Shown here in pieces: positions 6,451-56,244 of a DNA stretch of 64,000 nucleotides. Position numbers and translations under genes: made by a program. Origin of the DNA: an uncultured virus (IMG/VR IMGVR_UViG_3300025121_000020) (Duplodnaviria; Heunggongvirae; Uroviricota; Caudoviricetes); the IMG/VR virus record IMGVR_UViG_3300025121_000020; one strand, written 5' to 3'. The notes under the pieces are model-generated. The model saw nothing but the letters and a program-made list of their open reading frames with translations. It was not told the DNA's origin and made no database searches. Numbering within the stretch: the first letter of the stretch is position 1; each line of letters starts with the position of its first letter.

Positions 6451-7185
6451 AACTTCCTCAAAATCAGCGTCCAAGCCAGGTACGCCCAAAGTATCAATAG
6501 GAACCAGCCTACCAAATCTGGTTCTCTCCCGCCCTCAGACGTCCCCATCCTTAATTTCCTTCCACCCCTCCCCCGCCAGGTACTCCACGATCCCGTCGAT
6601 GCTCACTCCGCAGAACCTTTCCTTCGTCAAAGTTAGCTCCAGTATCTTGATGGCCGGATGCCTCGCTCCACACTCATAGATCATCACCTTCTCCCCCTGC
6701 CGCATGAGGCTCAAACACGTCACCCACTCCCCTCGTGTACACAGACCCACATTCACCTGGTCTGCTGACACGCGACAGTACCCCAGCTCTGCCTGTAGGG
6801 GAACGGCCGACACGGTCTGACGGATCCATGACGCTACGTCAGCATCGTGCGGCATCCCACGGTCTAAGGCAGCATGGCGGATGTGCTCGAGATCAATTTC
6901 AGCGTCCGTTATGCACTCCACCAAATCCTTTCGTGTACGCCTTCTGCACGACGGCAGTCAAGTCTCTCGGTGAGAAGGCAAAAGTATAGAGGGACCCCTG
7001 CCCCGACGGGGACACGCGCATCGGGTAGGGGCATACTCCCCGATGGAACTGGATGTCCACACGATCCGAACCAAACTGTGTGCGGATCCCCTGGAAATTC
7101 GACCCGTTCAGATCGGCTGTTGCCTGTACTGATGGTAAGGCAAGCTTCAGATCGGCGAGCATACCCGCTATTTCACGTTCGGAAT

Positions 7186-7506
7186 CTATGAGCCACCAGG
7201 GCACGGGCACTTCACACCTCCTTGTATTTCTTTCCACTCCTTCCACGACACGCCGCACACGTCTAGTATCGCATCTGGTGTGGCGCACTCGCATGCGAGC
7301 GCATCTCTTTCCCAGGCAGAAAGGACACGCTTGGCGAGATCTGGGTCGATGCGCGTCACCTCGAGCTCTTGGATACGCCGCAAGAGCTGAGGAGTCAAAA
7401 CGCCTTGCTCAGGGTGGGTACCCACGCGGGTGTAGTACCCGGACTCGAGGCGAGAGTAAAACTGCTGCAATTCGGTCACTTGGAGAACCTTTTCGGACAC
7501 TGACAC
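7186..7506 (-). CDS. hypothetical protein with CxC...CPC
   Basis: ORF in co-oriented minus-strand block. Confidence 0.5.
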   Translation of the reverse strand: MSVSEKVLQVTELQQFYSRLESGYYTRVGTHPEQGVLTPQLLRRIQELEVTRIDPDLAKRVLSAWERDALACECATPDAILDVCGVSWKEWKEIQGGVKCPCPGGS

Positions 7507-7588
7507 AAATACTTATTCCCACCTTGCAAAGGAGAGAGCGGCGACTCTCAATCTGGGGGGAAGGTTATTTGATATGATTGGCATGGAA

Positions 7589-8014
7589 TCAGTCCCTGGG
7601 GTCGATAACGTCACCCACCGCCGGCTCCACCGTCTCCATCCTCTTCAACGCCCGCCTGAACGCGATTATCAGCAACGCCAGCAGCACCCTCCCCCAGCTC
7701 GGGAGCACGTCGTTCAACACTCCCTGCGCCTCGATCAGCACCGCAAGAAAATCCTCGAGCACACTCTTCCAGTCCACCTCCCCCTTGCGCAACGCTTCGT
7801 CTTGTAGAATCGACCGCGCCCGCGCCGTCACATCTTGGAAGAACTGCTTAGGGTCCACGTGCTTCCCGGCGCACTCGCGGCACCTGAACTCCCCGTGGCA
7901 TAGGCACCTGTACGCACCGTGCACGGCGTTCACCCTGCGCGCACAATCTGCGCATGTGAGCATCACGTATTCCATCCCCTGGTCACGAAGACCAGCCTCC
8001 TGAACGGTCGACAT
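7589..8014 (-). CDS. Cys-rich Zn-finger-like protein with hydrophobic C-terminus
   Basis: CADC...CLC...CREC; ATG 8014 after GGAGGAAG. Confidence 0.55.
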   Translation of the reverse strand: MSTVQEAGLRDQGMEYVMLTCADCARRVNAVHGAYRCLCHGEFRCRECAGKHVDPKQFFQDVTARARSILQDEALRKGEVDWKSVLEDFLAVLIEAQGVLNDVLPSWGRVLLALLIIAFRRALKRMETVEPAVGDVIDPRD

Positions 8015-8019
8015 CGCAC

Positions 8020-8394
8020 TCACGGTCTTCCTCCCAAAGTTACCCCCATCCACACTTTCCCCTCCAGAGACACCCCCCGCTCGACTCCCGCTCCCTCCAG
8101 GTGTCTCGAAAGCACAATGGCCCGCTGCGGCGCCACCAGCCGCTCGTGACAGTACCTGACGTAAGCGTCGTAGACGTCTCGCGCCAGAACACTCGAGCCT
8201 GCACTCGCGATCAACACCTCGCGCCGAAACAGCTCCTCTACCGGGACCGCTCGCAGCCTGGTGTAATAGTCCCGCGGATACACAGCGGGGTCCAGATCCG
8301 TGACAGGAGTCATAACCGACTCGCACGGCGGCGCGTGACCCCTCTCCCGCCCGCACGGACGATCGTCTGATAGGTACTTTTCGCACAACAGCAT
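8020..8394 (-). CDS. winged-helix protein resembling primase/helicase C-terminal DNA-binding domain
   Basis: VLARDVYDAYVRYC...LSRHLEGAGVERG...WMGVTL pattern; its SD is interrupted by the IS607 remnant. Confidence 0.6.
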   Translation of the reverse strand: MLLCEKYLSDDRPCGRERGHAPPCESVMTPVTDLDPAVYPRDYYTRLRAVPVEELFRREVLIASAGSSVLARDVYDAYVRYCHERLVAPQRAIVLSRHLEGAGVERGVSLEGKVWMGVTLGGRP

Positions 8395-8403
8395 CTCGGT
8401 GGC

Positions 8404-8608
8404 CTGCTTCTCTCTACATACTACGTATGCGAAATACCTGTTTCCCAGGGCGGTCCAGATCGACCGGTCCCTCCGCAGGCGAATTAAGACCCCGACGAAG
8501 CCACTACCGGGATCACTGCGTTCAGATCTCGATCGTGCGTCGCCCCGCATCCCCCGCATGTCCACGATCGATCCTTCAGCTCCCAAGCATCGGAGCCTTG
8601 TATTCGAG
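8404..8608 (-). mobile_element. deleted IS607 derivative retaining the full omegaRNA scaffold and right end
   Basis: 8404-8523 matches 14300-14419; the rest matches tnpB 3' pieces joined at microhomologies. Confidence 0.92.
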
Positions 8609-8618
8609 CTCCTAGAGC

Positions 8619-8663
8619 AGGCTATCACACCTTTCTCAAAACATCAACATATTTTTATGATCT
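8619..8663 (-). promoter_or_regulatory. sigma70-like promoter TTGATG-17-TAGCCT upstream of the omegaRNA remnant
   Basis: -35 at 8647-8642, -10 at 8624-8619, extended TG, upstream ATCATAAAAAT. Confidence 0.65.
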
Positions 8664-8770
8664 TATCATAGGTAATCTACGATTTGAGCACCATCATCCA
8701 GAAACCCCTTGACACTTCCAGCCCCTCCCGTGCACTGTAAGGATAAGCTTGATACACCTACTCCGTACTT

Positions 8771-9034
8771 ATGAGGCACGTAATGCTGGCACCAGGCGAC
8801 TGCATAACATTCTCCGGGCACGAGTACATGCTCGTGAGTGATCCAGAGCTCCCGCGAGTCCGCGTGATCCCCCTCGAGTTTCGCTACCTGGAGTCGCACG
8901 ACGCTCCGGAGATCTACCTTCCGGTGACATCGGCGCTCGTGCCCCTCCCCGTTCCAAAAAGTCTGCGGGAGCTGGTCGACCGCCTCCGAAAGGTATGGCA
9001 ACCGTGCTGGGTGACAGGAACCTGCCCGGTCTGA
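8771..9034 (+). CDS. hypothetical protein
   Basis: ORF downstream of TTGACA (8709) promoter-like sequence. Confidence 0.5.
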   Translation: MRHVMLAPGDCITFSGHEYMLVSDPELPRVRVIPLEFRYLESHDAPEIYLPVTSALVPLPVPKSLRELVDRLRKVWQPCWVTGTCPV

Positions 9035-9125
9035 TAGTTTCAAGTAGCGCATTGTCTTCAATTGGCGCATCATTACGCTGAGGGAGGCAAGGGAGCACTA
9101 TGCGCGAGGAGACAGGAGTTGTGAA

Positions 9126-9626
9126 GTGTTCGACCCTACTGCCGGAGACCAGACCCTCAGCCGGATCTGGGAAATTTGGAACCGAGTGGGACTTGGGGGA
9201 GTGGTCTCCCTCGCGATCGCCGCGTCACTGTTGCGAGAAAAGGAGCGCCTCGCCGTCGGAAGGTACTTCGGAGGCATCCTCCGCTCCTGCGTCGACTGCT
9301 TCCTCCGCCTCGTCGATTCCCGAACGCGCGTCAACGAGGCCATTGAGAAACTCGCGGCATCCGAGCAACTGCGCACTCGTAGGGAAGCTCTTCGCACTAC
9401 TCTGGTGCCTGCTTCGACACAGACCCCACCCCCTCCTACAGCCTGCGATACGCTACCTGCAGACCAATACCAGCCAGAACCTACCCCTGCCCGCTTACCT
9501 ACACCGGGTACACTCCGTACGGCTGAGACGCCGCCGGCAAACGCTTACAGTGGTGTGGACGGTAGCGCTATTACTGTCTGTAGCACTAGTGACGACCGCG
9601 GTGGTTGGGGTGGCTCGGGCGGTTAG
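9126..9626 (+). CDS. membrane protein with Pro/Thr-rich tail (holin-like, tentative)
   Basis: SD AGGAG; hydrophobic VGLGGVVSLAIAASLL. Confidence 0.4.
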   Translation: MFDPTAGDQTLSRIWEIWNRVGLGGVVSLAIAASLLREKERLAVGRYFGGILRSCVDCFLRLVDSRTRVNEAIEKLAASEQLRTRREALRTTLVPASTQTPPPPTACDTLPADQYQPEPTPARLPTPGTLRTAETPPANAYSGVDGSAITVCSTSDDRGGWGGSGG

Positions 9627-9652
9627 AGTGGAAGGGGTGGGGATAGCGCAGG

Positions 9653-10144
9653 CTACCGAGTAGCCGCTTCGATCTGATCAAACGCCTCAAACACCTTCTC
9701 TCGGCTTCGCTCATCCAAAACGGCGAGCACCTGCCCCACCCCTCCCGCAAGATCAGCATTCACCCCGTAGGCCCTCACCCGCACGTACAGGGACGTCGGC
9801 ACCGCCTCCACCGGTGTCCCATCCGGACGCAAGCCGAAGTCCACGCCGATCGTAACTTCCGGGAAAACGGGGTGCTCTTCTCGAACGAGATGCAGAACCT
9901 GGCGCCCGTCCTTCGCGCGTTCGACCGCCGCGTGCCGCCAGAGAGGGTATGGCCCCTCCGGGAAAGAAGTGTGAACATCCTCCCAGAGCCTGTCATCCAC
10001 GTAAGCGGGCAAGTTCAGCGTGACCCTGGGTGCATCCGCTTGAACGCTCTCTGCAGCCTCCCGGACGTCTACGACTCCCTCACACCGAAAGATGTACATC
10101 GCTACTCCCCTTCCCATCGCGCCAAAAAGGCGTTGTGGTGACAC
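9653..10144 (-). CDS. hypothetical protein
   Basis: 163-aa ORF in minus-strand block. Confidence 0.5.
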   Translation of the reverse strand: MSPQRLFGAMGRGVAMYIFRCEGVVDVREAAESVQADAPRVTLNLPAYVDDRLWEDVHTSFPEGPYPLWRHAAVERAKDGRQVLHLVREEHPVFPEVTIGVDFGLRPDGTPVEAVPTSLYVRVRAYGVNADLAGGVGQVLAVLDERSREKVFEAFDQIEAATR

Positions 10145-10534
10145 CCGTTACTCTCGATCAGAGCCTTGAAGCTCTCTTCGATGTAGGCTGGAGCCTCCCC
10201 GCGACTCGCGCGCGCCTAGCTCTCCGCCTGCATGCCCATCGCCTCAACCATAGTCTGCACGGCTATGATGATACTGTAGGCGAATTCCTTCGCCTGATTC
10301 TCGTCCATACTCACCTCAAATCGACAATTGCCGCCGCCAGCACCGGATACTTCGCCCACTTCGTGGCGAAGGTCATGTAGTCCATGTCAGTACCGTAGTA
10401 ATCCCCTCTCATCTCGGCCAGGCGCTCAGGCGCCTTCACTGCCGCCAACTGGATGAACCGATACTCCCTCCCAAGGTCGCCTCTCAGGATGTCACGCGCC
10501 CTGGATACTCTGGAAGCTGCGCCACGTTCTAGCA

Positions 10535-11050
10535 TCACACCACCTCCCGCGCCGTTCCGTCCCAGCTCGAGCGGACCACACCACGGCGCTCAAGCTCCGC
10601 AATGAGCTGTTCGTCTGTGTAGCGCTTCAACCCGTCAAGGATGCTGTCTAGCACCGCAGGATCCAACGTAGCTTTCGCGGCTCCCTGGATCTGTAACGCA
10701 ACATTCAGCTTCCCCTGGACAACATCCAAAAACGTAGGTGAGCACTGATCGTATCCCGCGGACCACTTCCCGTCCTCTTCACTGAGAAGAGACCCCCCGA
10801 CATTTCGACAGGCGTACTCTTTGTCCCCGCTCTTCGCACTCCCATTCGGCGAACATCGAACCCGCACCGCGCCCGCCGGAAGATCCTGCTCCCCTTCGTT
10901 CAAAAATTCCCCCTGGAGAGCAAAGCCACCTTTCTGCGTCCGATCGATACCTGTCACAAGCTTCACCCAACCGACACGTCTCCCGGAACCGGTGGGCTTG
11001 GTGATGGTGATACGAACTTGAGCAACGCCGTTCCACTCTGTGATTTTCAT
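10535..11050 (-). CDS. hypothetical phage protein
   Basis: SD AAGGGAG; WVKLVTGIDRTQKGGFALQGEFL. Confidence 0.65.
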   Translation of the reverse strand: MKITEWNGVAQVRITITKPTGSGRRVGWVKLVTGIDRTQKGGFALQGEFLNEGEQDLPAGAVRVRCSPNGSAKSGDKEYACRNVGGSLLSEEDGKWSAGYDQCSPTFLDVVQGKLNVALQIQGAAKATLDPAVLDSILDGLKRYTDEQLIAELERRGVVRSSWDGTAREVV

Positions 11051-11123
11051 ACTACTCCCTTATTCCGGCCCAACTCCCCCACAGTATATCAACCCCACTA
11101 GGAGCCGAATGTACCTATGTTTC

Positions 11124-11564
11124 TTACGCCCTGAGCTCCCTCTCCACGTCGTCCCACCGCGAACCCAACAGCGCCCTGACAGCCGCGGCAGCCTTGACGC
11201 TGCCGTTCTTGTAGCGCTTCACCTGCCCGACGAACGAACCACGCTTCACGAGCGCGATCCCCTCCGCAACGTTCACCGTGATACTGGCCTCGATTGCCGG
11301 CCAGGTGTAGACCTGCCCGTCCACCTTCATGGCCAGAATACCCTCGACCGGAATGGCGCGGTATTCGCGCTTCTGGCAATCGAAAACCACGATCAGGTTC
11401 TCACCCGAAGCGTCGTACGCAGACTCCCCGCCCTGGAGGTGCTTCGTGACGCCCAAGCGGGCTACCATCTTGCGCTCGGTACCATCGGTGCGCTTCACGA
11501 ACGTGATGGAAAAGATCCTGCCGGAGCGAATGGAATCGATGATGAGCTTGCGATTACGGTCCAT
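11124..11564 (-). CDS. SH3/Sm-fold (WYL_2/DUF2693-like) phage protein
   Basis: FSITFVKRTDGTERKM...VVFDCQKREYRAI; SD GAGGAG; promoter upstream. Confidence 0.65.
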   Translation of the reverse strand: MDRNRKLIIDSIRSGRIFSITFVKRTDGTERKMVARLGVTKHLQGGESAYDASGENLIVVFDCQKREYRAIPVEGILAMKVDGQVYTWPAIEASITVNVAEGIALVKRGSFVGQVKRYKNGSVKAAAAVRALLGSRWDDVERELRA

Positions 11565-11599
11565 GGTTTCTCTCCTCAGTTCAGGTTGGAACTATCTTA

Positions 11600-11645
11600 G
11601 TTATAGTTGAAGAGAGAATAATTGTCAAGAGTATTTTTTAAGATT
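11600..11645 (-). promoter_or_regulatory. phage promoter AATCTTAAAAAAT-TTGACA-17-TATAAC
   Basis: near-consensus -35/-10 with the recurrent upstream element. Confidence 0.75.
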
Positions 11646-11667
11646 CGGTACACTTTCGCAGGAAAGC

Positions 11668-13278
11668 TCAGGCAGGCTCACTCGGGTAGTACCGCACCGA
11701 GATCTCCTTCTCATCCGTCGGCCTCGCCGACACCAGAATGATTCCCCTCTCTTTCGCCATCGCCGCGAACTCCTCCACCCTTCGTGGTGCGAGCGACGTG
11801 AGCCACGCCGCCTCCACGGCCATCACCCGCCCCGGAAAGGCCTGGATGCCGACGTCCAGCATCACCCGCGTCTGCTGTCCCTCGCTCAGGGACGGCTTCA
11901 CCGGGTCCGCGAACAGCTTCGTCTCCCCGTCCACCGTCGCGTACAACCGCCCACCATCGACCGTCAGCCCCGCCGGGATGCCCTTCCGACCCAACACCAC
12001 GCCGAGCTGGCCCTCGACGTCCTCCGCGACCTTCCGGTACTCTTTCCCGGACTGGACAGATGCCTCCGCATCCTTCGTCGCCGCAGCCTCGAGCACCTTT
12101 ACCACCGCAACGCGCTCATCGTGCGCTCGGACAGCCTCAGACGCCCCTTGCGCCGCACGAGCCCGCGACAGGTGGAGGGACGCACGGTCGGCCTCTTCCT
12201 TTGCCTGCTCAGCCTGTTCATCTGTGGGGAGATCCACGATCTCCTTGAACTGAGCCTGCGTGACGTCCCAGCGCCCCGCCTCCACCTCCACGCGTGCCCG
12301 GTTGGCTTGCATAGTCGCGAGACTCGCCTGCTCGACCCGCAGGCTCCCCCGCTGCCCCTCGACGTCCTGCGATGCCTTCGCGAGGTCCGCCTGGAGCTTG
12401 GCGATCTGCTCGCGGACCTTTCCCGCAGCAGCTTCCTTCCGCTCGAGCACGGCAGCGACGGTGGTCACCAGGTTGGCCTGTTCCGAGATGCCAGCGTCCA
12501 GACTCTCCGGCTTCGGCCTCTCCCCCAAGGTCCGCTTTACATCCTCAAGCTTCGCACGCCGCGAAGCCTGCAACTTCTTCTCCGCCGCCACCGCCGCAGC
12601 CGCGCGGGCGATTGCCTCGAGCGCCGTGCAATCCTCCCCCAGGTACATCACCAGTTCTTCGCCTACCTCCGGGGCAACCGCAGCCGCAATCGTCGCCCGA
12701 TGCACTTTCGCGGCCCCCGCCAGCTCCGCAGACTTCCGCTCTGCAGACAAAGCGAGCGCGTTCGCCTCGGTCTTTAGCGCCTCCTTGACGGTCAGAACGG
12801 GCTGCCCCGCCAGATTGGTCCCCGCAAGCTTCCCACACGAGAGGGTCTGGACGTCCCCCTCCGTCGCCGTGCCCGCCTCCGGGATCAGCGCGAACAGTGC
12901 CCGGATGCGCGCCTCGTCGGCGAGACCGGGATCCTTGACGCCGTTCCCGGTCAGGAAGCTGGTGAGCAAGTCCAAAGGTGCGATCGGGACACTCGCGACC
13001 ACCAGCTCACCCTTCTGCCTGGCAGAACGGATCAGGACACCTTTCCCCTCCTCAGCTACGTAGGCGGGAAGGGTCTTCGCCGTCCCGTCCGGGAGGCGGG
13101 CGACGTGTGCGTTGAGACGCCCCGCGCCAGATGTGGCGCAGACCAGGGCGTCCATGAGGTTGGTCTTCCCGAGGGCGTTGTCGCCCTCGAGAATGTTCCA
13201 ACCTGTTCGGAACGTGTAGGTGTGCTCGCCGGTGAGATTGCCGACGTTCGAGAATGTGTAGGTGATGGACGGTTGCAT
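11668..13278 (-). CDS. SMC/Rad50-like ABC ATPase with coiled coil
   Basis: Walker A GDNALGKT, long coiled coil, signature LSEGQ. Confidence 0.75.
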   Translation of the reverse strand: MQPSITYTFSNVGNLTGEHTYTFRTGWNILEGDNALGKTNLMDALVCATSGAGRLNAHVARLPDGTAKTLPAYVAEEGKGVLIRSARQKGELVVASVPIAPLDLLTSFLTGNGVKDPGLADEARIRALFALIPEAGTATEGDVQTLSCGKLAGTNLAGQPVLTVKEALKTEANALALSAERKSAELAGAAKVHRATIAAAVAPEVGEELVMYLGEDCTALEAIARAAAAVAAEKKLQASRRAKLEDVKRTLGERPKPESLDAGISEQANLVTTVAAVLERKEAAAGKVREQIAKLQADLAKASQDVEGQRGSLRVEQASLATMQANRARVEVEAGRWDVTQAQFKEIVDLPTDEQAEQAKEEADRASLHLSRARAAQGASEAVRAHDERVAVVKVLEAAATKDAEASVQSGKEYRKVAEDVEGQLGVVLGRKGIPAGLTVDGGRLYATVDGETKLFADPVKPSLSEGQQTRVMLDVGIQAFPGRVMAVEAAWLTSLAPRRVEEFAAMAKERGIILVSARPTDEKEISVRYYPSEPA

Positions 13279-13389
13279 TGCTGCCTCCCTGAAAGGTTTG
13301 GGGCAAAAGACTACTGTGAAGGAGTCTATAGAGGATAGAGATTAAAGTCAAGAAGATTTTTTAAGAGATTGTGCCTATATCTGACAATC

Positions 13390-14028
<639 letters not shown>

Positions 14029-14279
14029 GACCGGGCCTCATTGAACGCCTTGGAAACTACGTCCCGGTGAATGGTCTCTAGAGCAGCTTGGGTCAAGCAG
14101 ACATCCCGACCCCAGCGGTCCTCATTGTATCCGGAGAGGCCCGTAACTCCCAAACGCCGCGCCTCGAGCAACAACATGTGCTCACGAGCGCGCATCTTCT
14201 CGCTGCCACCGTACGCGTCAGAGACACGCGTCCAGTGCGCCTCCCAGGCACCGGCGAGTGAGCCTACCGCTGGAACATC

Positions 14280-14420
14280 GTCCTTCAAGGTACGCAATGC
14301 TGCTTCTCTCTACATACTACGTATGCGAAATACCTGTTTCCCAGGGCGGTCCAGATCGACCGGTCCCTCCGCAGGCGAATTAAGACCCCGACGAAGCCAC
14401 TACCGGGATCACTGCGTTCC
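14280..14420 (-). ncRNA. TnpB omegaRNA; guide starts at 14299 (CAUUGCGUACCUUGAAGG...)
   Basis: overlaps tnpB 3' end and right end; conserved in the other copies; GCUUC/GAAGC pseudoknot potential; 5' boundary approximate. Confidence 0.8.
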
Positions 14421-15483
14421 TGATGTTGATCGCGGCGTTCAGATCGCGATCGTGTATCGCCCCGCATCCCCCGCATGTCCACGATCGATCCTTCAGCTCC
14501 AGATCCTCTTTTTTCCATCCACAAGCTGAGCAAAGCTTACTCGACGCGAACCAGCGATCGACGACGACAACCCTACTCCCGAGCATCGGAGCCTTGTATT
14601 CGAGCTGCCTCCGGATCTCCCCGAAGGCAGCGTCGGCCAGGGATCGAGCTAAAGATCTCAGACCCGTCATCCCTCGCACATTCAGATCCTCGAGACCGAT
14701 CAAGTTGTGCTGTCTCACCAGCTCAGACGTCATCTTGTGAATGGCATCTCCCCGTTGGTCGGCCACCCGTGCGTACGCCCTCGCAACCCTGGCCTTGGCT
14801 TTCAGCCAGTTCGAAGAGCCCTTGACCTTGCGTGAGAGGGACCGCTGAAGTCCTCTCAATTTCTTCAGTGCCCCAGCGAGGTGTCGCGGGTTCTGGAAGC
14901 ACACGCCGTCCGAGCAGACGGCCAAAGTCTTCAATCCGAGATCGATCCCTACCGATCCACCTGGATGAGCTAGGGTACGGTTCGGCATCTCGACTTGAAT
15001 CGAGATCCACCAGTGCCCGGCCTTGAACGAGATCCGCCCAGAGAGGATTTTCCCGACGAAGCGAAGCACCTCCGCCATGTTGACGACGCCGATCAGCTTC
15101 TGGATCCGCAGTGCATGCCCGTCGACGTCGAACCGATCGTTCGCAAGGTAGAAAGTGGGCTTGCTCCGGTGCTTTGCCTTGAACTTCGGGTAGCCGACAC
15201 TCTTCATGCCGCGGAAAAAGTTCGCGAACGCCTTGCCGAGATCCGAGAACGCGCCCTCGACGGCGGACTTCGTGACGTCGTACGTCCAGGGGAATGCGGA
15301 TCCCTTGACCGCATTGAAGTCCTTCTTGAGACCCAGAGCGGACGGCTTGCCCCCGTCCTTATAGATCCGCTCCCACTCCGCCCGGCCCCAGTTGAAGGCG
15401 AAGCGAGCGATGCCACACGCCTGGCGGAAATAAGCCTCCTGATCGGGAGATGGGTTCAGGCGGATGCGGTGGGAGAGGATCAT
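14380..15483 (-). CDS. tnpB: RNA-guided endonuclease TnpB, catalytic residues intact
   Basis: RuvC GIDLG, LEDLNV, DRDLNAA; CSAC/CGGC zinc finger. Confidence 0.97.
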   Translation of the reverse strand: MILSHRIRLNPSPDQEAYFRQACGIARFAFNWGRAEWERIYKDGGKPSALGLKKDFNAVKGSAFPWTYDVTKSAVEGAFSDLGKAFANFFRGMKSVGYPKFKAKHRSKPTFYLANDRFDVDGHALRIQKLIGVVNMAEVLRFVGKILSGRISFKAGHWWISIQVEMPNRTLAHPGGSVGIDLGLKTLAVCSDGVCFQNPRHLAGALKKLRGLQRSLSRKVKGSSNWLKAKARVARAYARVADQRGDAIHKMTSELVRQHNLIGLEDLNVRGMTGLRSLARSLADAAFGEIRRQLEYKAPMLGSRVVVVDRWFASSKLCSACGWKKEDLELKDRSWTCGGCGAIHDRDLNAAINIRNAVIPVVASSGS

Positions 15484-16097
15484 TCTTTTGCCGATTCTAG
15501 CGCAGTTTTCAACGCTTTCTTGTAATTGCGTAAGCCATACAGACGAGAGGAAAAGCAGTGTACCACCGTCATCAGATCTTGAACCATTTCCTGCTCAGGG
15601 GATAATTTTTCAGAATTCAACACGCGAATGGCGCATTCGTGCGTGTGGCAATAGTGCTCAAACCACTCAAAGCCAAACCGACACAGGCGATCCTTGTGCG
15701 CAATGATCAAGTCTGAGATCTCACCTCGCCCGACGCGATCCATGATCTCGACGAATCGCTTTCGTCTCAAGTTCATCCCACCGCCGATTTCCTCCACGAA
15801 CTCCACACCGTCCAAACCGCTAGCTCCGCAAAAACCCTCTAACACCCCTCGTTGGTTCTTCAAGTCCGGTCTCTGCGCGTGAGAAGAGACCCGGCAGTAG
15901 GCGATGCATACCCGTACACAGGGAGAAGTCAGCCTACCCAAATAGGCGTCCAGAGACTGCTGCGCATATACACGCCTTCCGGAAGGAAGGCGTTCCGCGC
16001 GTAAGGATCCTTCCCGATCCCAACGTTGGAGAGTTTGCGGATGCTTACCTAGGTAAGCAGCGGCTTTTCCGAGAGAAAACATCTTCATAGAGACCAT
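15480..16097 (-). CDS. tnpA: IS607 serine transposase
   Basis: MerR-like HTH, YCRVSS catalytic motif, FSSRLYG. Confidence 0.97.
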   Translation of the reverse strand: MVSMKMFSLGKAAAYLGKHPQTLQRWDREGSLRAERLPSGRRVYAQQSLDAYLGRLTSPCVRVCIAYCRVSSHAQRPDLKNQRGVLEGFCGASGLDGVEFVEEIGGGMNLRRKRFVEIMDRVGRGEISDLIIAHKDRLCRFGFEWFEHYCHTHECAIRVLNSEKLSPEQEMVQDLMTVVHCFSSRLYGLRNYKKALKTALESAKE

Positions 16098-16370
16098 GAT
16101 AACATACTATTGCATACGTTGTCAAGAGCTAGATTAGCGCTCACATCTCCCCCACACGGTTCATGGCCGCCGCGTACCCCTCCGAGTACCCAGTAGACCA
16201 GCTCTTCTGCTTCCTGGTCAGCTTTTCACCGTCTGCTCGTCTCGAGACGAGAGCCATGTTGAAGATACTAAACTCAGTCGTGACACTTACCCCGAACTCG
16301 TACTCAAACGCGTAATTGAACGTTTCCACGAAACTGTCATTCAGCTTCTTTGCGATCTTCTGGGCTTTGC

Positions 16371-19915: not shown

Positions 19916-20323
19916 GTCTACCTCCCTTACGAAAAGTTATTGCGCCTCTCCCTTGCTCCCCGGGTGAGGCTAGGTACAGGGTGACGAGCCCGCGTCACAC
20001 CGGAGTTCCGATCGGGACGCTCCCCGACCGTTCCTCCCGCTGGGCTCGTAGACAGGCTCTCCCTGGCGCGCTAGAATCCGGCAGGCTCACGCGTTGACCG
20101 CTTTCGACGTACCGCGTGAACCAGAGCATGCGCAGGAGCCGCCCCCGCGCCCGCGTGACGACACGCACCGCCTCGTGCTCTTCCCCGGTTCGGGGACGCG
20201 TCGTCATCAGAAGAGCGGTCCGTGGCGCATACCTCACCTGCCTGTGTGAGTGACAGGAGAGTAGCAGCGCCGCGGCGAGCATGCGAAGCCAAAAGAGCAC
20301 TCGATCAACCTTCCAGGATACGA

Positions 20324-20386
20324 ACCCAAAGGTATGCAAAATACCTATTTCTCGGGGCGGTCCAGATCGACCGGTCCCTCCGCAGG
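20324..20386 (-). mobile_element. degenerate omegaRNA fragment (IS607 relic)
   Basis: ~60 bp similar to 14320-14376 and 55894-55956; both element ends lost. Confidence 0.8.
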
Positions 20387-20818
20387 AATGAAATCCGACT
20401 CCTTCGCCAAAAGTAGACTCATAAGAAGTAAGCTCTGCACCTTCGCTTTGCCGACGCTGTGCCCGCTTGGCGCGTGTGCAGGCTCCGCTGTCGGCTCCGC
20501 TGTCGGCTCCGCTGTCGGCTCCGCTGTCGGCTCCGCTGTCGGCTCCGCTGTCGGCTCCGCTGTCGGCTCCACCAGCGTCATACTATACCTCTGCCTCTGC
20601 CTGCACGCCTCCCGATACGAGACCATGTCCGTGAACTCAGCATCCCCTGTCTCCCGCCTCTTGAACAGGTTCGCAGGCAAGAACGCCGTGAAGATCAGCA
20701 CAGGCTGCATACGGTGCACCCCGTCCTCTCCCCTTACGTCCCGATCCTGGTAGATGTCCCGCTTGACCGCCAGCGGGAGGCCATGCGCCCTACGATACTG
20801 GAGTTCTCTGCTCGTCAT
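20345..20818 (-). CDS. hypothetical protein with (EPTA)n repeat
   Basis: 157 aa; 12-bp repeat x7.5 at 20481-20570; stop codon lies in the omegaRNA relic. Confidence 0.5.
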   Translation of the reverse strand: MTSRELQYRRAHGLPLAVKRDIYQDRDVRGEDGVHRMQPVLIFTAFLPANLFKRRETGDAEFTDMVSYREACRQRQRYSMTLVEPTAEPTAEPTAEPTAEPTAEPTAEPTAEPAHAPSGHSVGKAKVQSLLLMSLLLAKESDFIPAEGPVDLDRPEK

Positions 20819-30122: not shown

Positions 30123-31655
30123 ATGACAGACACCTACGCCGTCACCCTCGTCCACCGCGCCATGACACTCTGGACGCGTTATCCCGTCTTCTGGCCCAGT
30201 GCCGCCGCGGACGACACGCCCTTCGTCCAGGAGTTCTACCGCGCACTCTACGCTTACTCCCCTGACCGAAACTGCGCTGTCGACGCATTAGACCACGTGG
30301 CGCGCTCGCTTCTCTCTGCCTACGCCCACACAGGCACCGTAGACATCAACGAAGCCTGCTCACGCGCCGCCCAGGACAAGAACGCCGCCGCAAGCGTACA
30401 CTGGGGTAGGTTAGCCCGCGCGCGCCCACCAGGAGCCTCTCAGCGCGCTTCACTGGACGTAGACGCACGAGACGTCGCGAGCAGGCTAGGTCTAGGAGAG
30501 AACCAGTGCCCGTCCTGCGGCGCCACTGACGACGCGATGAAATTCTACGCCTGGCGCGGCAAGAGCTGGTGGAAGCATCACCGCTGCGGCGCGTCCGGGC
30601 CGGCGGAAGCGATGGCGCGCATCGCCCTGGGGGGTAACGCGGCAGCAGACGCCTGGCTCGAGTCGCAGGGATTGATGCAGGAGGTATCTACCCCTCCGGC
30701 GGGGTGGCCGGGGGAGCAAGAGGAAGGCGCGGAGAGTCCGGAACCCGCACATGCGCCGCCGGAAGCCGCGTGGTACTCACAGGGGGAGATCCAGAAAATC
30801 TGGAATGCCTGCCCCGCGGTGAGCGCTCGATCCCGAGTCGGCTCGTGGCTCCGAGACGAGCGAAAGATCCCGCTCGAGTCCATCACTCCGCACGACGTCA
30901 GGGAAGCGCACCGACTACCGGGGGCGCGGAAGGGCATCGCCTCCCTGCTAGCCGCGTGCCCCGCCGCGGTGTTTCCGGTCCGTAATCTGGAAGGACACAT
31001 CTACAACTTGCAGTTTCGCTTCGTGGAGCCTGTCGACAAGGTGACGCGTCGCTTCTACAACGGGGGCAACCCCGGCAGCACGGAGGACGCGGAGGGCTTC
31101 CCGTTCCTGCTGGGAACGCCCCCTGTGCCCCTGCAGGACGTCGCGGAGCGTGCGGACGTCCTCATAGTTACAGAAGGCGCCCCGGACACGCTGACGGTCC
31201 GCTCAGCGCTTCGGAGCGGTGGGCGCATCGCGACGACGGGACGCGGCGAAGTGGGGGGTATGGTACTCGGCGCACTGAACGCCGGAGACGTACCCAAACT
31301 CCTCGAGGTCCTCCCGCCTGAAATCTGGAATACGCGAGCAGTGCTCCTCATCCCGCACTGGGACCCCCTCCGAGGGGACGCTGACGGCACGTATCGCCTG
31401 GGGGTCCGGGAGACCGAATACCTCGCCAGCGCTTTGCGCGGGGTAGGGGCAGCGCCGCACGTGTGGCGCTGGGAGATCCTGCTGAAGTCCGTGTGCCCGA
31501 AGTTCGGGATCCTCACCCTGGAACGATCTGCGAGTCTTCTTGAACACGCTGACCTGAACGATGTGTTGTGCGCTGCGGGTATGCCTGCACTCCTGGACTT
31601 GATCGATGTCGAAGTTCGGCAGGCTCAGCGCGCCTTTTTGGGCCGAGAAGGCTAG
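30123..31655 (+). CDS. DNA primase (Zn finger + TOPRIM)
   Basis: CPSC...HHRC, IVTEGAPDTL, DLND. Confidence 0.75.
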   Translation: MTDTYAVTLVHRAMTLWTRYPVFWPSAAADDTPFVQEFYRALYAYSPDRNCAVDALDHVARSLLSAYAHTGTVDINEACSRAAQDKNAAASVHWGRLARARPPGASQRASLDVDARDVASRLGLGENQCPSCGATDDAMKFYAWRGKSWWKHHRCGASGPAEAMARIALGGNAAADAWLESQGLMQEVSTPPAGWPGEQEEGAESPEPAHAPPEAAWYSQGEIQKIWNACPAVSARSRVGSWLRDERKIPLESITPHDVREAHRLPGARKGIASLLAACPAAVFPVRNLEGHIYNLQFRFVEPVDKVTRRFYNGGNPGSTEDAEGFPFLLGTPPVPLQDVAERADVLIVTEGAPDTLTVRSALRSGGRIATTGRGEVGGMVLGALNAGDVPKLLEVLPPEIWNTRAVLLIPHWDPLRGDADGTYRLGVRETEYLASALRGVGAAPHVWRWEILLKSVCPKFGILTLERSASLLEHADLNDVLCAAGMPALLDLIDVEVRQAQRAFLGREG

Positions 31656-55836: not shown

Positions 55837-55849
55837 ACTACTCAGGGAG

Positions 55850-55972
55850 CGCTAATCTAGCCCCGGTAGTGGCTTCGTCGGGATCTTAATTCGCCTGCGG
55901 AGTAATCGGTCGATCTGGACCGCCCCGGGAAACAGGTATTTCGCATACCTTTGGGTATGTAGAGAGAAGCAG
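55850..55972 (+). mobile_element. 123-bp IS607 mini-element: left tip + omegaRNA scaffold/right end
   Basis: GAG|CGCTAATCTAGC identical to IS left end; ends GTAGAGAGAAGCAG. Confidence 0.93.
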
Positions 55973-55980
55973 GATTCCAG

Positions 55981-56244
55981 ATGGACGACATGCACATTCG
56001 CGACGCTCTGCAAGCTTTCAAGCGGTCTGCGGAAGTTGGGGTCGAGGAAATAGAACGGAACCGCTGTAGAGTCGAGAACGGGTGGCTCGTGCTCCAGAAG
56101 AGTGGGAAGCCGCACACGGCTTCTGACGGCGTAGAATACGCCCCGCTCGATCCGATCGTGTACTTCGACGAGTTTTTCGCCAGAGTCGTGGCGAAGTCGA
56201 TCGAGGGGTCGGTGGTGACGGTGAGAGAGTATTTGGAGGGGTGA
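55981..56244 (+). CDS. hypothetical protein
   Basis: 87 aa; SD reconstituted when the mini-element is removed. Confidence 0.65.
   Translation: MDDMHIRDALQAFKRSAEVGVEEIERNRCRVENGWLVLQKSGKPHTASDGVEYAPLDPIVYFDEFFARVVAKSIEGSVVTVREYLEG

Follow-up and report, generated by a model that had tools for sequence, protein, structure and literature searches.

By the textbook account, TnpB guides serve to target the empty insertion site in trans. Stand-alone omegaRNAs that are used in trans by a compatible effector were described by Altae-Tran 2021, as relayed in the part of Altae-Tran 2023 (PMC10691335) cited here, and PATE-like, gene-less elements of the IS200/IS605 group encode omegaRNAs according to the available portion of Meers 2023 (PMC10055086). 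In CboIStron, deletion of either LE or RE abolishes excision, and TCGG as opposed to TGGG, a difference at position -3, protects the occupied site (excerpted text of Zedaveinyte, bioRxiv 10.1101/2023.11.20.567912). For IS607 TnpBs, AGGAG was the TAM in 18 of 22 tested strains, as stated in the section of Ren 2024 (PMC11061315) used here. The locus described below, copy A, is a gene-less omegaRNA module that arose from an IS607 copy via deletions; it is a by-product of IS decay and not a dedicated gene.

The DNA that was analysed, referred to throughout as the window, is a 64-kb stretch with a G+C content of ~0.6. It encodes terminase subunits, a DNA polymerase, helicases, a primase-like protein, a RecJ-like exonuclease and an exonuclease (PHROGs) as well as a D12 methyltransferase (Pfam), and it appears to be a section of a large phage genome. 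Contigs of up to 157,812 bp are recorded with the tnpB of the window. The stretch is present in groundwater and soil metagenome runs from several studies (17 runs listed, 0 of them RNA runs). A blastn search of positions 7000-10500 against the GenBank phage collection returned 0 matches, and IMG/VR searches with tnpB, with the neighbouring 145-aa gene and with the DNA polymerase found no relatives. An 18-nt scaffold word retrieved 8 loci from IMG/VR that have nothing beyond that word in common, and when JGI metagenomes were scanned with the 536-aa neighbour protein, 0 of 290 candidates were confirmed. The window holds one full IS607 element (copy B) and, besides copy A, two further remnants (copies C and D):

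14300..16139, minus strand: full IS607 element, copy B, 1,840 bp, with tnpA, tnpB and scaffold
15480-16097, minus strand: tnpA of copy B, a serine recombinase (Pfam: Resolvase and MerR/HTH_17)
14380-15483, minus strand: tnpB of copy B (Pfam: OrfB_IS605, Cas12f1-like_TNB and HTH_OrfB)
14300-14409, minus strand: scaffold of copy B (covariance model R1)
16140-16144, minus strand: GTGAG at the TAM position of copy B, abutting the left end
55845..55992, plus strand: second gene-less remnant, copy C, in which GGGAG and 12 nt of left end run directly into the terminal 111 nt of the right end (96.8 bits)
20310..20419, minus strand: third remnant, copy D, a decayed scaffold without the 3' tail (32.7 bits, E 5.9e-8)

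The bounds of copy B were placed at 14300-16139 because a three-copy comparison sets both ends: at the right end, copies A, B and C are alike up to ...GAGAGAAGCAG and divergent beyond it, and at the left end, CGCTAATCTAGC is common to B and C and is preceded by differing flanks that end in GTGAG (B) and GGGAG (C). Copy B has the genes by which IS607 membership is recognised, a serine-recombinase tnpA with a MerR-type HTH followed by tnpB, whereas copy A has neither, and the left end of copy B carries a TTGACA promoter-like site. Residues 7-359 of the copy B TnpB align with the TnpB of ISDra2 (E 7e-64); chain 8iaz (E 2e-46), which judging from its length may be ISFba1, is more distant than ISDra2 TnpB. 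The motifs GIDLG, GLEDLN and HDRDLNAA are conserved in the protein, as are four zinc-finger cysteines that are invariant among the six closest relatives. By comparison with ISDra2, these three motifs presumably hold the RuvC triad. The residues named for ISFba1 in the consulted section of Ren 2024 (PMC11061315) back this placement. Judged by its sequence, copy B is apparently an active TnpB system, with the RuvC triad and zinc-finger cysteines intact.

Two observations were made at the 3' side of copy B. The last codons of tnpB (14380-14409, minus strand; protein tail PVVASSGS) encode the first stem of the scaffold, and the tail, PV(V/M)A(S/M)SG, is conserved in relatives, which may reflect a constraint on the RNA rather than on the protein. 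Just downstream of the element, within the frame 13371-14081, short words recur more than 12 times in 13390-13511.

Copy A and its surroundings comprise the following features:

8404-8608, minus strand: copy A, a 205-bp IS607 remnant derived from the 14300-16139 element
8404..8513, minus strand: complete omegaRNA scaffold core, 110 nt (model R1)
8514..8608, minus strand: remnant of the 3' coding part of tnpB, with 21-bp and 79-bp deletions and 4 substitutions
8609..8613, minus strand: AGGAG, TAM-like, abutting the former left-end boundary
8384..8403, minus strand: guide-equivalent, the first 20 nt of phage flank after GCAG
8619..8647, minus strand: promoter-like TTGATG-17-TAGCCT (TTGATG 8647-8642, TAGCCT 8624-8619), with TG one base before the -10 hexamer
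8020..8394, minus strand: small phage gene, starting at ATG 8394 or ATG 8313 (coding-score scan)
7589-8026, minus strand: second small gene, downstream (coding-score scan)

A blastn search with 8201-8800 and direct comparison demonstrated that 8404-8523 is identical to 14300-14419 at 120 of 120 bases, in agreement with the initial annotation, which had described the scaffold as identical to the IS607 copy over ~120 bp. Beyond this block, copy A lacks the 21 bp of 14420-14440 (repeat GCGTTC, plus strand), matches 14441-14500 at 57 of 60 bases (8524-8583), lacks the 79 bp of 14501-14579 (repeat CTCC), and matches 14580-14606 at 26 of 27 bases (8584-8610); the similarity of the two copies is far above chance (blastn E 2e-74; covariance-model E 3.8e-28). 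A third deletion, of 1,535 bp, took away the remainder of tnpB along with tnpA and the left end in their entirety, and its junction repeat reads GCT on the plus strand and AGC on the minus strand. It had been claimed that three deletions at AGC, CTCC and GCGTTC removed tnpA and tnpB; all three do lie at the named repeats, but only the 1,535-bp deletion took tnpA and most of tnpB, the others falling within the 3' end of tnpB. In the AGC repeat, AG is the end of the TAM position and C the start of the left end; as the repeat spans this join, the 1,535-bp deletion stops exactly at the transposon boundary, and AGGAG (8613-8609) now stands directly before dead tnpB sequence. It may be speculated that this deletion edge, lying at a recombination site, records an aberrant event in which TnpA recombined the left end with an ...GCAG-C site inside tnpB.

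The segment 8611-8625 resembles the TCTAGCTC motif of related left ends and was considered as a diverged left end of copy A. Such an end would be ~30% diverged beside a right part that is 0-4% diverged, and the reading was rejected because the AGGAG-C junction accounts for 8611-8625 without it. A mini element keeps both transposon ends, whereas in copy A the TAM position is joined straight to tnpB-internal sequence; without a left end, copy A can therefore be neither excised nor moved.

Short-read contigs break at the repeated scaffold in 4 of 4 runs (loose ends at 8403/8404, 8511 and 8610), a pattern in keeping with copy A being a chimera of contigs mis-joined at this repeat; however, contigs from runs of two studies bridge both the right and the left junction. 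Among the contigs of other runs, X6 record 27 covers the right junction (8222-8433), and the left junction together with the 79-bp deletion is bridged by X11 record 3 (8554-9026) and X6 record 28 (8532-8640). The arrangement of copy A is therefore not an assembly artefact of the window alone, and a mis-joined origin is considered exceedingly improbable.

The scaffold core of copy A is laid out as a 5' stem-loop, a long-range helix enclosing a third helix, a terminal hairpin, and a purine-rich tail ending in GCAG. Covariance model R1, built from seven sequences, matched copy A over model positions 1-120 of 120 (100.8 bits, E 3.8e-28); elsewhere in the window, copy B scored equally at 100.8 bits, copy C 96.8 bits and copy D 32.7 bits, and copy C contains three more non-standard pairs than A and B. 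Outside the window, R1 gave 28 matches in 27 of the 28 loci searched, with one scaffold at the tnpB 3' end per matching locus. At one locus (L067), scaffolds were seen on both sides of tnpB (1064-1181 and 2456-2573). In the covariation alignment, 92.2% of cells were paired versus 32-49% with the partners slid, and compensatory changes on both sides were present in 25 of 29 pairs, observed values that 0 of 500 shuffles matched; this alignment was fitted to the R1 model, which favours the pairing result. Among the closest relatives, whose 3' regions are homologous to that of the window, compensatory changes alter the terminal hairpin (GCAUAC/GUAUGU or GCGUGC/GCACGC) and an inner helix (CGGUC/GACCG or UCAGU/ACUGA). 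Folding of single sequences was not distinctive (z -0.61 and -0.41). After the scaffold end, which is GCAG in most cases, the flanks of the three window copies and of 18 further sites all differ. The scaffold of copy A is a full-length version of a structured RNA that accompanies tnpB and stops at the transposon boundary; given the conserved structure and this end point, it fits, biochemistry apart, the definition of an omegaRNA.

No Rfam family reached its gathering score in the window, and nothing relevant was found to E 10 in 8300-8750. Derivation from a RAGATH-18-type reRNA was considered and rejected, there being no RAGATH-18 match in the window. A weak R1 match was recorded at 30306-30388 (minus strand; 13.6 bits, E 0.027), ending in CAGAGAGAAGCGA and lying inside the primase-like gene; it is probably due to chance.

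The 20 nt after the scaffold of copy A read GCCACCGAGATGCTGTTGTG (8403-8384, minus strand), exactly as the initial annotation had given the guide, and they are unique within the window with up to 3 mismatches allowed. The description of this guide as new holds only in the sense that it is flanking DNA, as acquired by any insertion. An ATG within the guide-equivalent (8394-8392) opens a 124-aa frame, and joining the left flank to the guide-side flank yields AGGAGG-N8-ATG, that is, a Shine-Dalgarno sequence and a start codon. The reconstructed empty site reads TAGCCT-GCTCT-AGGAGG-CCACCGAG-ATG, with a -10-like hexamer, the Shine-Dalgarno sequence and the start codon in succession. The motifs before the left boundary are AGGAG in copy A, GGGAG in copy C and GTGAG in copy B, and the TAM position is occupied by GGAAC and GTAAG in the related elements L015 and L012, respectively. 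By our own arithmetic, a given 5-mer at a fixed place is expected about once per thousand; because of this low chance, and because AGGAG is a published TAM of IS607 TnpBs, it is read, by analogy, as the authentic TAM of the original insertion at copy A. The occupied allele reads AGCAG at the TAM position and thus differs from AGGAG at -3.

The empty site of copy C likewise reads GGGAGG-ATTCCAG-ATG, and the guide-equivalent of that copy (55973-55992) covers ATG 55981 of an 87-aa frame. Across the clade, 11 of 21 unique insertion sites have, at +4 to +14 beyond the right end, an ATG that starts a frame of 50 aa or longer, compared to a rate of 5.7% at random positions in the same DNA (binomial P = 4e-9). 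These data indicate that the clade inserts between the ribosome-binding site and the start codon, and the GGAG-type TAM would double as the Shine-Dalgarno sequence of the target gene in this IS607 clade. A brief, shallow literature search found no statement on IS607 insertion at ribosome-binding sites. Since copy A lies between AGGAG(G) and ATG 8394, and since the preference of the clade for such sites (11/21 vs 5.7%) implies routine residence in leaders, the remnant could act in cis: separated from its AGGAG, the downstream mRNA would have its translation or stability controlled by copy A, and binding or processing by TnpB would couple the gene to TnpB levels. However, the gene could instead start at ATG 8313, and such an effect would be a side effect of every insertion by the clade, with nothing special to copy A, so that a role as a cis-acting leader is regarded as very unlikely.

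With regard to the insertion-free allele, the 20-nt guide of copy A had no match in IMG/VR, and no such allele was found. Of the contigs of 4 runs that lie on 6500-13300, none joins across copy A; the short contigs break at the repeat and are therefore uninformative on the empty site. Among the contigs listed for X12 and X14, 8404-8523 was covered only by one with the flank of copy C.

The initial annotation had also placed a phage promoter ~10 bp upstream of copy A. The TTGATG-17-TAGCCT arrangement is indeed there, 10 nt separating its -10 hexamer from the element, but the match is weak: the hexamers score 4/6 and 3/6 against the consensus, a consensus scanner does not call the site, and comparable sites number 40 per strand in 64 kb, with 7 on the minus strand that have the TG. 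The best support is positional, as the site lies where a promoter of the downstream gene would be expected. The protein of the 8020-8394 gene had no matches in Pfam, the gene next upstream of the copy A region is divergent, and a scan found no minus-strand terminator-like site between the promoter-like site and the 8020-8394 gene. Because two minus-strand genes need a promoter, for which 8404-8770 is the only room, copy A would be transcribed as part of their leader; we infer that the promoter of the downstream genes lies in 8404-8770, most likely upstream of copy A.

The deletion junctions of A, C and D differ, and the three are therefore independent remnants rather than several copies of one mini element. 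The decay series A > C > D suggests ordinary IS decay, in which solo scaffolds in the phage are not selected for. As a separate observation, copy D adjoins a PT-repeat frame (20345-20818). Copies A and B differ by 4 substitutions, none of them in the 120-bp scaffold block and all in the other 87 aligned bp, for which our own arithmetic gives (87/207)^4 = 0.03; this value is marginal, and the 120-bp identity could equally be explained by recency or by gene conversion from copy B.

On these grounds, copy A might be an inert fossil, a recent deletion product heading towards the state of C and D that is perhaps passively transcribed, is used by no TnpB to any effect, and has no empty allele in circulation. 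The decay series, the loss of the left end (and with it of movement and excision), the two extra deletions as signs of ongoing erosion, the failure to find an empty site in the contigs of 4 runs or in IMG/VR, and a scaffold identity only marginally above expectation (0.03) all point in this direction. However, copy A retains a complete scaffold that matches, base for base, the one in an intact and apparently active element of this genome, it sits in transcribed orientation upstream of a gene, and gene-less scaffolds of the same family multiply elsewhere, in an Ardenticatenaceae genome. An inert fossil is thus a possibility to be taken seriously, albeit one that we doubt.

The Ardenticatenaceae MAG (G004; L170-L179) contains ten gene-less cassettes that are nearly identical and measure at least ~380 bp, each with a TTGACA-17-TATAAT site, a scaffold of the same family ending in GGTAGCAG, and its own flank, and it also holds two tnpB-linked copies (L093 and L094). 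For 3 of the 10 cassettes, there is no tnpB in the 1.5 kb upstream; the other 7 are at contig ends. The closest TnpBs are found on a single 184,760-bp metagenome contig, phage-like and distantly related to the window, that has at least 2 further phage-like genes in common with it, and they comprise five paralogues with 60-65% identity (L010-L013 and L015). A separate TGGTATAAT-type promoter-like site and a scaffold accompany each of these tnpB paralogues; a full tnpA is absent from all five loci, and L013 has only a tnpA stub encoding the HTH (80% identical over 51 aa). In the 5 pieces of this contig that were searched (~30 kb), the scaffolds are tnpB-linked only.

The account towards which we lean, with some hesitation, is that copy A is a remnant still usable in trans. 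It is favoured by the apparently active TnpB of copy B, the identical scaffold, the position of the 4 substitutions, the published precedents and the G004 cassettes; the weak promoter match, the failure to find an empty site in the contigs of 4 runs or in IMG/VR, the decay series, and the varying motif at the TAM position (GTGAG in copy B) speak against it. The IS607 element had inserted in the manner typical of its clade, with AGGAG, read as both TAM and Shine-Dalgarno sequence, on one side and a small phage gene, at its start codon, on the other. The 1,535-bp deletion, with its left edge at the left-end boundary, then stripped it of its left end, of tnpA and of most of tnpB, and two small deletions broke the tnpB tail further. 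The product is an immobile cassette made up of a promoter-like site in upstream phage DNA, ~95 nt of defunct tnpB sequence, the 110-nt scaffold, and the native flank as guide. Copy A would be transcribed as the leader of the downstream gene, and TnpB from the intact copy B, 6 kb away, would load the copy A RNA in trans. The complex could then cut the insertion-free alleles of related phages (AGGAG + GCCACCGAG...), sparing the occupied site because AGCAG stands there in place of AGGAG, and cutting would favour the inheritance of copy A by recombination.

Should copy A be used in trans in this manner, it would show that guide RNAs can survive the loss of their transposon and go on skewing inheritance between phages. 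A bolder version, which we consider unlikely, is that the phage keeps one active TnpB together with immobile guide cassettes that have no left end, placed at its own Shine-Dalgarno/start-codon junctions, and that TnpB cuts the uninterrupted alleles of co-infecting relatives at translation-start regions; if true, the cassettes would spread by repair as guide-only homing elements independent of transposase, or act as a weapon against competitors. Whatever its use, copy A is a clean natural case of a TnpB transposon decaying to a guide-only cassette in which TAM, scaffold and guide are left in place, and the matching nuclease is still encoded on the same phage genome. Of more general relevance is the preference of this IS607 clade for positions immediately ahead of start codons, where the AGGAG-type TAM would double as the ribosome-binding site.

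Among the described systems, copy A resembles in several respects the stand-alone omegaRNAs, as these are presented in the cited part of PMC10691335: it has no effector or transposase gene, an effector locus is present in the same genome, and the guide is the DNA beside the right end. Those omegaRNAs are described as evidently mobilised, however, whereas copy A is immobile, has no left end, resides in a phage and would need an outside promoter. The G004 cassettes share with copy A a homologous scaffold, differing flanks and tnpB-linked sister copies in the same genome; unlike copy A, they have a common ~260-bp upstream part with TTGACA-17-TATAAT, occur in 10 copies and look mobilised. Similar to PATEs, as far as they are described in the available portion of PMC10055086, copy A derives from a TnpB transposon, encodes no protein, and would have to rely on the TnpB of another element for its omegaRNA, but PATEs retain the two transposon ends and depend on a Y1 TnpA for movement, while copy A is of serine-recombinase IS607 origin and has no left end.

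The family to which copy A belongs resembles CboIStron, according to the excerpted text of bioRxiv 10.1101/2023.11.20.567912, in combining a serine TnpA with TnpB, in having the TAM, here a putative one, abut the left end, and in having a guide that would target the donor joint; in both, the scaffold end shares the core dinucleotide with the TAM or putative TAM and differs from it at -3 (AGCAG/AGGAG here). The sequences themselves differ, being TGGG (TAM) and UCGG (scaffold end) in CboIStron as opposed to (A/G)G(G/T)AG (putative TAM) and GCAG here; furthermore, no group I intron is present here, and the CboIStron elements tested in that text, whether full or engineered mini versions, had both ends. 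ISFba1, in the section of Ren 2024 (PMC11061315) used here, has a 5'-AGGAG TAM, the same motif as the putative TAM of copy A, and likewise an AG-rich motif beside the left end, but its reRNA is of the RAGATH-18 type, whereas the scaffold described here has no RAGATH-18 match and overlaps the last 30 nt of tnpB. Altogether, copy A would work like the described stand-alone omegaRNAs but is a deletion remnant, and it is a further instance of a described phenomenon and not a new system.
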